Positions 47,422 through 48,603 of a DNA stretch of 64,000 bases are shown piece after piece. The stretch lies in the sequence record OZ035760.1. One strand, 5' to 3'. The notes under the pieces were generated by a model, which made no database searches, was not told the DNA's origin, and saw nothing but the letters and a program-made list of their open reading frames with translations. Positions within the stretch are counted from its first letter, which is position 1. Every line of letters starts with the position of its first letter. This stretch comes from Tequatrovirus NIC06P2. A program made the translations under genes and the position numbers.

Positions 47422-47709
47422 TTACCATTTATGATGATACATACTTACGATGCATTCAAGACCTAAAGGATTCTTGAAAATATCATATTCAAGAGGACCT
47501 TTTTCTGTTTCAATAAAGAAATCAAAATTTACTGTATTAAATTTACGGTCTTCCTTTACTAATTTAACTTGAGAAGATGAACGGTCAATGTAAACCTTTT
47601 CAACTTCAAAACATGTTAAAACGCCATAATCATCAATCAAGGCTTTAGCTGCTTCTTGATCATATTTATATCCATTTTCAATGGATGATACTTTCGCATA
47701 AAGAATCAT
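47422..47709 (-). CDS. hypothetical protein
   Basis: 95 aa ORF between tRNA cluster and 57B. Confidence 0.5.
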   Translation of the reverse strand: MILYAKVSSIENGYKYDQEAAKALIDDYGVLTCFEVEKVYIDRSSSQVKLVKEDRKFNTVNFDFFIETEKGPLEYDIFKNPLGLECIVSMYHHKW

Positions 47710-47711
47710 TA

Positions 47712-48125
47712 TCAGCCTCTATCAACGATAGTATGAGTATGGGCATTTACGATTTGCCACCAGTCGAAACGATTGGAACCATAATCTGCTGGTTTATTTT
47801 CATTTTCTTTAATGATATCACGCAGTTTATCTTCTGTTTCAGCATACGCAATTAAATCATCATATCCACCACAAGGATAATAATTATCACCTGCGAATAA
47901 AAGAAAATTTACCTTAGATGGATTTACGTAATAATGGTCTTTAGGATATTTAGTTCCTCTACAATCAGTTACTTCAACATAACGATAAGAAAATCCATTT
48001 TTACTTTCAATCCAACTCCACGCTTCAAAAGGAGTATTAAAAACTTTATCAGGTATTAAATTACCTTCAAAATGAGAAGGATTTGCATAATCCCCGGCAT
48101 AAACATAATATTCGTTAATACTCAT
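47712..48125 (-). CDS. hypothetical protein
   Basis: 137 aa, Tyr/Trp-rich. Confidence 0.5.
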   Translation of the reverse strand: MSINEYYVYAGDYANPSHFEGNLIPDKVFNTPFEAWSWIESKNGFSYRYVEVTDCRGTKYPKDHYYVNPSKVNFLLFAGDNYYPCGGYDDLIAYAETEDKLRDIIKENENKPADYGSNRFDWWQIVNAHTHTIVDRG

Positions 48126-48311
48126 TTATTCACCTTTAGAAATTTTATCCATAACGATAGCGATTAAACCAATTAAAAATGCTACTACAAGTGAAAACAC
48201 ATTTTCTGCTGTAGTTAATAATCCGCATATAAATCCAGCAAACATTGAAAAACTAAAAGCGGAAGCAGAAATTGCAATAGCAACATTTCGAATTAATTCA
48301 CAACGTTTCAT
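48126..48311 (-). CDS. small membrane protein
   Basis: 61 aa hydrophobic ORF. Confidence 0.45.
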   Translation of the reverse strand: MKRCELIRNVAIAISASAFSFSMFAGFICGLLTTAENVFSLVVAFLIGLIAIVMDKISKGE

Positions 48312-48337
48312 TTTATTCTCCTCAGTAGTTGATAGGG

Positions 48338-48380
48338 TAATAGTATCACCACCCTATCTAAAAGTAAACTTATTTTTTAC
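48338..48380 (-). promoter_or_regulatory. sigma70-type early promoter cassette with palindromic -10 region
   Basis: gataggg-taatagtatcacca-ccctatc inverted repeat then gtaaac. Confidence 0.45.
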
Positions 48381-48603
48381 GAAAAATTGATTTATTTTCT
48401 GCTGCCCATTTTTCAATAACTGCAGCCGGACCAGTAACAACAATTTTATCACCGTAATCTTCTGCGGCGAGTTGACCGAAATTATCTAATGCATCACGAA
48501 GAACTCCATGAGGCATTTCACCCATTTTATCTTTCTTGCCAGTGTAAATAAACTCAACTTTTACATCAGAAGATTCAGCGATAAATTCTTTAAACGTTTT
48601 CAT
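48370..48603 (-). CDS. short internal-protein-like protein with capsid-targeting leader
   Basis: N-terminus MKTFKEFIAE-SS; 77 aa. Confidence 0.6.
   Translation of the reverse strand: MKTFKEFIAESSDVKVEFIYTGKKDKMGEMPHGVLRDALDNFGQLAAEDYGDKIVVTGPAAVIEKWAAENKSIFRKK

Follow-up and report, generated by a model that had tools for sequence, protein, structure and literature searches.

The stretch of DNA analysed here, 64,000 nt from Tequatrovirus NIC06P2 (OZ035760.1) and referred to below as the window, carries four open reading frames (ORFs) of 95, 137, 61 and 77 aa on the minus strand between positions 47,422 and 48,603. An earlier note on this sequence had described these ORFs, including the 77-aa protein that begins MKTFKEFIAE, and had placed them at the T-even ipI locus, and on both points it was right. 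The interval lies between tRNA-Gln (47,251–47,324, minus strand; called with ARAGORN), which is the first gene of the tRNA cluster and forms the right boundary, and gene 57B (48,676–49,131, minus strand), which forms the left boundary of the ip slot, just as ipI does in T4. Gene 57B encodes the anti-CBASS phosphodiesterase Acb1 (Pfam PF23474, E = 2.6e-60), and its product is 99.3% identical to T4 57B. In T4 (NC_000866) the genes run in the order tRNA-Gln, trna.2 (95 aa), trna.3 (136 aa), trna.4 (61 aa), ipI, 57B and 57A.

Three of the four ORFs are orthologues of these T4 genes: trna.2 (47,422–47,709; 95 aa, 95.8% identity to T4 Trna.2, phrog_2023), trna.3 (47,712–48,125; 137 aa, 97.8% identity to T4 Trna.3) and trna.4 (48,126–48,311; 61 aa, 98.4% identity to T4 Trna.4, phrog_1692), all on the minus strand. 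They are separated by 0–2 nt and form a tightly packed trna.4-trna.3-trna.2 operon that is conserved in T4, and the same order and spacing recur in T6, PST, Bas37 and many other phages. The 137-aa product is indeed rich in Tyr and Trp (14 Tyr and 4 Trp, together 13.1% of its residues) and the 61-aa product is membrane-like (two hydrophobic segments, residues ~10–35 and ~27–59), both as had been noticed before, while the description of the three as unrelated cargo has to be dropped. Because they are 96–98% identical to T4 genes and lie in the T4 order, they are conserved T4 genes and not variable cargo, and their annotation should carry the names trna.2, trna.3 and trna.4 rather than present them as novel. 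Measured against T4, which the earlier note had used as its yardstick for all four ORFs, three have orthologues in the same arrangement and the ip gene differs, the ip slot being the sole difference from T4 in the interval.

The original picture, in which a leader-bearing gene and three unrelated ones had amassed as variable cargo at a hyperplastic ipI locus unlike that of T4, did rest on real variation. The content of the ip slot does vary among T4, PST/T6/Bas37, 303Ecol101PP and the window, and trna.3 shows allelic variation in its N-terminal half, with an extra paralogue in vB_Eco_EL. We nevertheless consider that picture very improbable, given that the three trna genes keep the sequence, order and spacing that they have in T4 and that at least 80% of the interval is covered in 310 of the 868 phage records that match it, almost all of them Tequatrovirus. 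None of the phage records is an exact match to the window, and the best ones reach about 96% identity over 8 kb.

The fourth ORF, ipVI (ip6; 48,370–48,603, minus strand), encodes an internal head protein precursor of 77 aa. Its product is 100% identical in amino acid sequence to IpVI of Yersinia phage PST (AGR46087.1) and matches the profile phrog_8111, ‘internal virion protein’, over residues 1–77 (E = 3.3e-51); a tblastn search found it in 246 phage records, where the annotation ip6 or ipVI is frequent (for example, ip6 of vB_EcoM_VR7). This protein has therefore already been named Ip6/IpVI and is not a new leader-bearing protein. Its family is tiny and phage-specific, with 11 clusters at 90% identity in a set of 5.8 billion proteins and just 7 cluster representatives among 1.84 billion. 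Global identity to T4 IpI is 23%, and the likeness is confined to the leader. The position of the gene between trna.4 and 57B is that of ipI in T4, one of the two T-even ip loci (the other is near e/denV). A Pfam search assigned none of the four ORFs to a family, PADLOC gave a single noise-level match (E = 0.021), and PDB sequence searches with IpVI, trna.3 and trna.2 returned nothing.

Codons 1–10 of ipVI (48,574–48,603, minus strand) encode the leader MKTFKEFIAE, in which the earlier note had correctly recognised a capsid-targeting sequence. The leaders of T4 IpII and IpIII read MKTYQEFIAE and T4 IpI starts with MKTFKEF. In T4 IPIII the first ten residues (MKTYQEFIAE) are enough for packaging; targeting involves residues 4 and 7, and cleavage by gp21, a protease that cuts after L/I-x-E, involves residues 8 and 10 (PMC9026906). 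The IpVI leader has the aromatic residues of this pattern at F4 and F7, followed by an I-x-E motif at residues 8–10. Since the whole protein contains no L/I-x-E motif other than I8-A9-E10, gp21 is predicted to cut after Glu10 and to leave a mature form of 67 aa, with a mass of 7.4 kDa and a pI of about 6.5. In an AlphaFold2 model (mean pLDDT 81, built from 8 close sequences only), residues 1–9 score below 50 and make up a disordered or flexible leader, and the residues past the leader are predicted to fold into a compact, small ferredoxin-like beta-alpha-beta-beta-alpha-beta domain. By the rules established for T4 IPIII, the leader would direct IpVI to the scaffold core of the prohead and be cut off after Glu10 by gp21, the prohead protease, and mature IpVI would enter the head along with the DNA and be injected when the phage next infects a cell. 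A literature search for virion proteomics of Ip6 found none. No late promoter motif (TATAAATA) was found upstream of ipVI, so late synthesis for packaging would need read-through or continued early/middle transcription.

Both spacers in the interval, 58 nt ahead of trna.4 and 72 nt ahead of ipVI, hold a promoter cassette, and together they make up a direct repeat of ~65 nt (48,306–48,369 and 48,598–48,663). Cassette 1 (48,312–48,369, minus strand) has a -35 box TTTACT at 48,368–48,363 and a -10 box TACTAT at 48,345–48,340, with a stem-loop (48,331–48,358) whose perfect 8-bp arms, GATAGGGT and ACCCTATC, lie at 48,358–48,351 and 48,338–48,331; GAGGAG and the ATG of trna.4 follow. Cassette 2 (48,604–48,675, minus strand) has a -35 box TTTACA at 48,662–48,657, a -10 box TACTAT at 48,639–48,634 and a stem-loop (48,624–48,653) with perfect 10-bp arms, TGATGAGGTA and TACCTCATCA, at 48,653–48,644 and 48,633–48,624, and is followed by the ribosome-binding site of ipVI. 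Each is intergenic, stands directly upstream of an ORF, reads TTTACW-N17-TACTAT and has its -10 box within a perfect inverted repeat, which bears out what had been noted of the two cassettes, although the second lies just past the end of the interval as first drawn. Both are T-even early-promoter/stem-loop elements (PeSLs) of the published kind. Repoila et al. in 1994 reportedly described elements of ~70 bp, with a promoter and an inverted repeat, that flank ip genes, and these would be the same cassettes.

The published early-promoter consensus for PST and T4 PeSLs is TTTACW-N17-TAYWAT (PMC4122927). We adopted this T4-specific pattern since generic sigma-70 and terminator scans do not discriminate here: a generic sigma-70 scan gave 9 sites where 9.1 were expected, no enrichment, and a terminator scan called none. 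The T4 pattern occurs 13 times in the whole window, against 1.19 expected, and all matches are on the minus (coding) strand. Such an inverted repeat is carried by only 3 of these 13, the third being at 28,973–29,001. The two cassettes fold at -16.0 kcal/mol (z = -2.8 against shuffled sequences) and -17.4 kcal/mol (z = -3.7), and the other early promoters of the window fall between -1 and -8 kcal/mol. With G-U pairs allowed, the stems extend to 12–13 bp. The stems of cassettes 1 and 2 differ at two positions, and at both of them the two arms have changed in compensation. In a comparison of ten variants of the cassette, taken from seven phages, every one of the 120 stem cells was paired, and at two pairs both partners had changed in compensation; this covariation is suggestive, the sequences being few and related. 

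These observations bear on whether the repeats have any function of their own, or are chance palindromes or by-products of the promoter sequence. The 3′ arm does overlap a stretch close to +1 (...CTATC) that many T4 early promoters conserve, and the absence of enrichment in the generic promoter and terminator scans would fit such an origin. We regard it as unlikely, however, because the repeat is present in only 3 of the window's 13 early promoters, these stand far apart from the others in folding energy, and the stems keep their pairing through changes at two positions. The T4 ipII and ipIII cassettes, moreover, have another perfect repeat, different in sequence, around their -10 box.

The stem-loops of RB49 PeSLs have been shown by experiment to terminate transcription, and PeSLs recombine into mini-circles (PMC2839356). 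The cassettes in the window have no U-tract and, with no terminator called, a terminator role of the hairpin is unsupported here. A transcript from the promoter of the cassette itself would start inside the 3′ arm, so hairpin formation is limited to read-through RNA and to DNA. Among the ten variants, G-U pairs in the stems are found on the sense strand only, which hints that the hairpin may serve read-through transcripts as an RNA 3′-end or stability element, and not only as a site of DNA recombination.

The contents of the ip slot and the sequences of its cassettes point to such recombination. The slot holds ipI only in T4, ipVI and ipV in PST, T6, ADUt and Bas37, a 77-aa variant with ipI in 303Ecol101PP, and ipVI alone in the window. 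Cassette 2 of the window is one base off the cassette upstream of T4 ipI and also one base off the PST ipV cassette, so ipVI is driven here by a cassette that precedes ipI or ipV in T4, PST and T6. In alignments, the window is of the ipI/ipV type from 57B to the ATG and of the ipVI type from codon 8 onward, which would place the switch of type in or adjoining the 21 nt of shared leader codons (48,583–48,603). This exact junction is also present, at 98.5% identity, in pSe_SNUABM_01, FL08, BCH953P2 and BCH953P4. Other phages have other junctions: BW-1 has a hybrid cassette in which the type changes at the -10 box and the stem is lost, and AV122, vB_Eco_EL and OES_C-2 have lost ipV and kept the ipVI-type cassette, so that AV122, by its sequence, appears to be an independent case of ipV loss. 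The arrangement in the window is what homologous recombination between the repeated cassettes or leader codons would be expected to produce, by removing the ip gene nearest 57B or exchanging it for another. The joining of ipVI to the 57B-proximal cassette would fit a crossover within the conserved codons of the leader, and the sequences of the window, BW-1 and AV122 are comparative evidence that PeSL cassettes act as crossover points for the gain, loss or swap of genes. The locus is a neat illustration of how recombination can act in a cassette or leader.

What IpVI may do after injection is suggested by its orthologue in Bas37 (Escherichia phage KarlGJung). Bas37_0260 (QXV82231.1; MZ501089:145553-145786) is identical to IpVI at 73 of 77 residues (95%), the differences are only at residues 4, 5, 11 and 12, residues 13–77 are the same in both, and the locus is the same; the gene is one of the tblastn matches to the window protein, and bas37_0260 sits at the ipI locus of Bas37 (bioRxiv 10.1101/2025.11.20.689424). 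In a HIDEN-SEQ preprint, disruption of bas37_0260 strongly lowered fitness on K-12 BW25113, an effect that was absent on a host without McrA, McrBC and Mrr, and a clean knockout made the phage sensitive specifically to McrBC (bioRxiv 10.1101/2025.11.20.689424). This result comes from a preprint, is genetic and concerns the orthologue (bioRxiv 10.1101/2025.11.20.689424); the preprint was the only paper that a literature search on Ip6 function found. By its sequence and locus, the 77-aa ORF of the window is the orthologue of this reported McrBC inhibitor. Injected IpVI would most likely block the host type IV restriction enzyme McrBC, because its orthologue is identical from residue 13 on and deletion of that orthologue makes Bas37 McrBC-sensitive.

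T4 internal proteins offer a different precedent. T4 Ip1, Ip2 and Ip3 are injected inhibitors of type IV restriction, and the GmrSD enzyme that is inhibited differs from one to the next (PMC12373910). As all three characterised T4 internal proteins act in this way and ipVI occupies the ipI slot, IpVI could, once injected, inhibit an enzyme of the GmrSD family with glucosyl-hmC DNA as its substrate, instead of or besides McrBC. This seems improbable to us. In the same study none of ip4–ip10 reproducibly inhibited the GmrSD variants in the assay (Supplementary Fig. 9, PMC12373910), a result that bears on IpVI if the ip6 used there has the sequence described here. In Bas37 the effect of the knockout is traced to McrBC in particular, and outside the leader IpVI has no sequence or fold likeness to IPI* (2JUB), a structure that was absent from the best 50 of 1,412 Foldseek matches to the IpVI model, none of which reached E <= 0.001. 

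Nor does a purely structural role account well for the Bas37 data. Internal proteins are abundant and were at first thought to bind DNA, loss of IPIII affects head assembly (PMC9026906), and ipVI was non-essential in the Bas37 reference library, all of which would suit a protein that fills the head or condenses DNA and plays no part in anti-defence; the Bas37 phenotype would then be indirect, for instance a polar effect on neighbouring genes. Mature IpVI, however, is not basic: its predicted pI is near-neutral at 6.5, compared with 9.0–9.7 for the T4 internal proteins, a difference that also counts against our own reading of IpVI. The Bas37 phenotype depends on one host restriction system, and the downstream genes bas37_0257–0259 had no phenotype in the same data set, which argues against polarity. 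We hold such a role to be highly improbable and keep to McrBC as the most likely target.

As a separate observation on DNA modification, Bas37 encodes ba-gt; the left edge of the window lies near gene 43, and the position of the counterpart gene in this phage would be just beyond it. A beta-alpha-glucosyltransferase of the T2/T6 type would leave some hmC unglucosylated and hence accessible to McrBC, which is why ipVI might go together with this enzyme.

Taken together, it is very probable that the interval comprises two minus-strand transcription units, each with a PeSL at its head, one of them PeSL plus ipVI and the other PeSL plus trna.4-trna.3-trna.2, and that the arrangement arose via recombination, with IpVI being packaged, cleaved, injected and most likely blocking McrBC. 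The gene identities, the leader with its cleavage motif, the anatomy of the cassettes, the covariation of their stems and the mosaic junction on which this account draws are direct observations. From these and from the T4 and Bas37 precedents we infer packaging, cleavage, injection and McrBC inhibition in this phage, along with a role for the hairpin.

We are more tentative about the operon. A literature search on trna.2, trna.3 and trna.4 found nothing, and their Bas37 orthologues, bas37_0257–0259, are non-essential in the reference library. The homologues of trna.3 have a conserved C-terminal half (NFLLFAGDNYYP.GGY...FDWWQIV) and an N-terminal half of two divergent types, both of which are present in vB_Eco_EL, the phage with the extra paralogue, and no PDB entry is a convincing match for the predicted trna.3 fold. 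Because the promoter of the operon is one of only three inverted-repeat early promoters in the window, the kind that drives ipVI, trna.4-trna.3-trna.2 could be a further counter-defence module; the divergent alleles, the duplication in vB_Eco_EL and the lack of a convincing fold match are why the variable half of trna.3 might be a diversifying specificity domain. This extension, together with the cassette hairpin acting in RNA, is speculative, and we think it rather doubtful.

The literature already covers the ip gene and its leader, as well as the polymorphic nature of the ip locus and the promoter/hairpin cassettes, and all of them are present in hundreds of annotated genomes. For annotation, the practical gain is a label for the 77-aa ORF, whose product is a probable injected McrBC inhibitor and whose neighbour is acb1 (57B), an anti-CBASS gene.

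The organisation of the locus can be compared with several known systems. As in the T4-type PeSLs described previously (Arbiol 2010, PMC2839356; Comeau 2014, PMC4122927), early promoters with stem-loops flank small accessory genes in the window, and sequence comparison points to crossovers within the cassette, but the stem here encloses the -10 box, whereas the published PeSL stem adjoins the promoter. RB49 PeSLs terminate transcription, and for the window cassettes, which have no U-tract, terminator activity cannot be assumed. The IpVI of PST and T6 resembles that of the window in its position directly upstream of trna.4, its leader and its downstream cassette. In PST and T6, however, ipV is also present between ipVI and 57B and ipVI keeps its own usual cassette, while the window has no ipV and its ipVI has the 57B-proximal cassette of the ipI/ipV type. 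Bas37 likewise has ipV, and Bas37_0260 has a leader of the same type as IpVI, with YQ at residues 4–5 and TA at 11–12 where the window protein has FK and SS. T4 IPI shares the genomic slot between trna.4 and 57B, and its upstream cassette is one base apart from that of ipVI in the window. The mature domains of the two proteins are unrelated, with no similarity of IpVI to IPI* (2JUB) in sequence or fold; T4 IPI is cut after residue 19, for IpVI the predicted cut follows residue 10, and IPI has a pI of 9.0 and targets GmrSD, in contrast to the pI of 6.5 for IpVI and the McrBC target reported for its orthologue. Even so, by analogy with T4 IPI, the inhibitor of GmrSD from E. coli CT596, IpVI would follow the same logic of an anti-restriction protein that is packaged in the head and injected with the DNA.

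In Escherichia phage BW-1 (locus record L011), the promoter stem-loop cassette between ipV and ipVI (~1605-1676) is a hybrid, ipVI-type on its 5' side and ipI/ipV-type on its 3' side. The switch from one type to the other falls at the -10 box and the arms no longer pair; the hybrid has the appearance of a direct trace left by recombination within the cassette itself. A third early-promoter cassette with an overlapping stem (-15.9 kcal/mol) lies in the window at 28973-29001 on the minus strand, and its 3' half is close to the ADUt ipVI-type cassette, with 2 differences in 45 nt. 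It stands upstream of an ORF (27968-28936) encoding a P-loop ATPase-like protein of 322 aa that belongs to phrog_1250 (unknown function) and starts with MKT, but lacks the capsid-targeting leader.

The ip locus at e/denV is also unlike that of T4, because the window carries neither ipIII nor ipII between its e (40612-41106) and denV (40136-40552) genes, the site of both in T4. Directly downstream of denV is a second leader-bearing ORF (39653-40126, minus strand; MKTYQEFITE...), whose 157-aa product matches phrog_3155, 'internal virion protein', with an E value of 6e-102.

The gene trna.3 exists in two forms, of 126-127 aa and 136-137 aa, which share a conserved C-terminal half and have divergent N-terminal halves. 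Both are adjacent in vB_Eco_EL (1213-1593 and 1668-2078), and trna.3 is found at 745-1125 in two further relatives (locus records L009 and L010). Precomputed Pfam annotation assigns PF26894 to trna.3 homologues; the profile search with a local Pfam copy did not report this family for trna.3. The beginning of the trna.2 coding sequence contains a T4 late-promoter motif, TATAAATA, at 47663-47670 on the minus strand; none was found upstream of ipVI. The 97-nt spacer from trna.2 to tRNA-Gln contains an 11-bp hairpin (AAGGGUUCUUG...; 47334-47358, minus strand), perhaps a site of processing or termination before the tRNA cluster; over its full length, the spacer is no more stably folded than its shuffles (z -1.5).

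This cluster (45868-47324, minus strand) holds nine tRNA genes, among them tRNA-Tyr and one with a CAU anticodon. ARAGORN calls the latter Met; the matching T4 position is annotated as tRNA-Ile. The cluster is split by a GIY-YIG (SegB-like) homing endonuclease ORF (45948-46721), whose real start is probably further in, since the GTG that begins its longest reading overlaps tRNA-Tyr.

The predicted mature IpVI (48370-48573), with 11 basic and 11 acidic residues, is near-neutral, and its predicted pI of 6.5 contrasts with the 9.0-9.7 predicted for IpI*, IpII and IpIII of T4.
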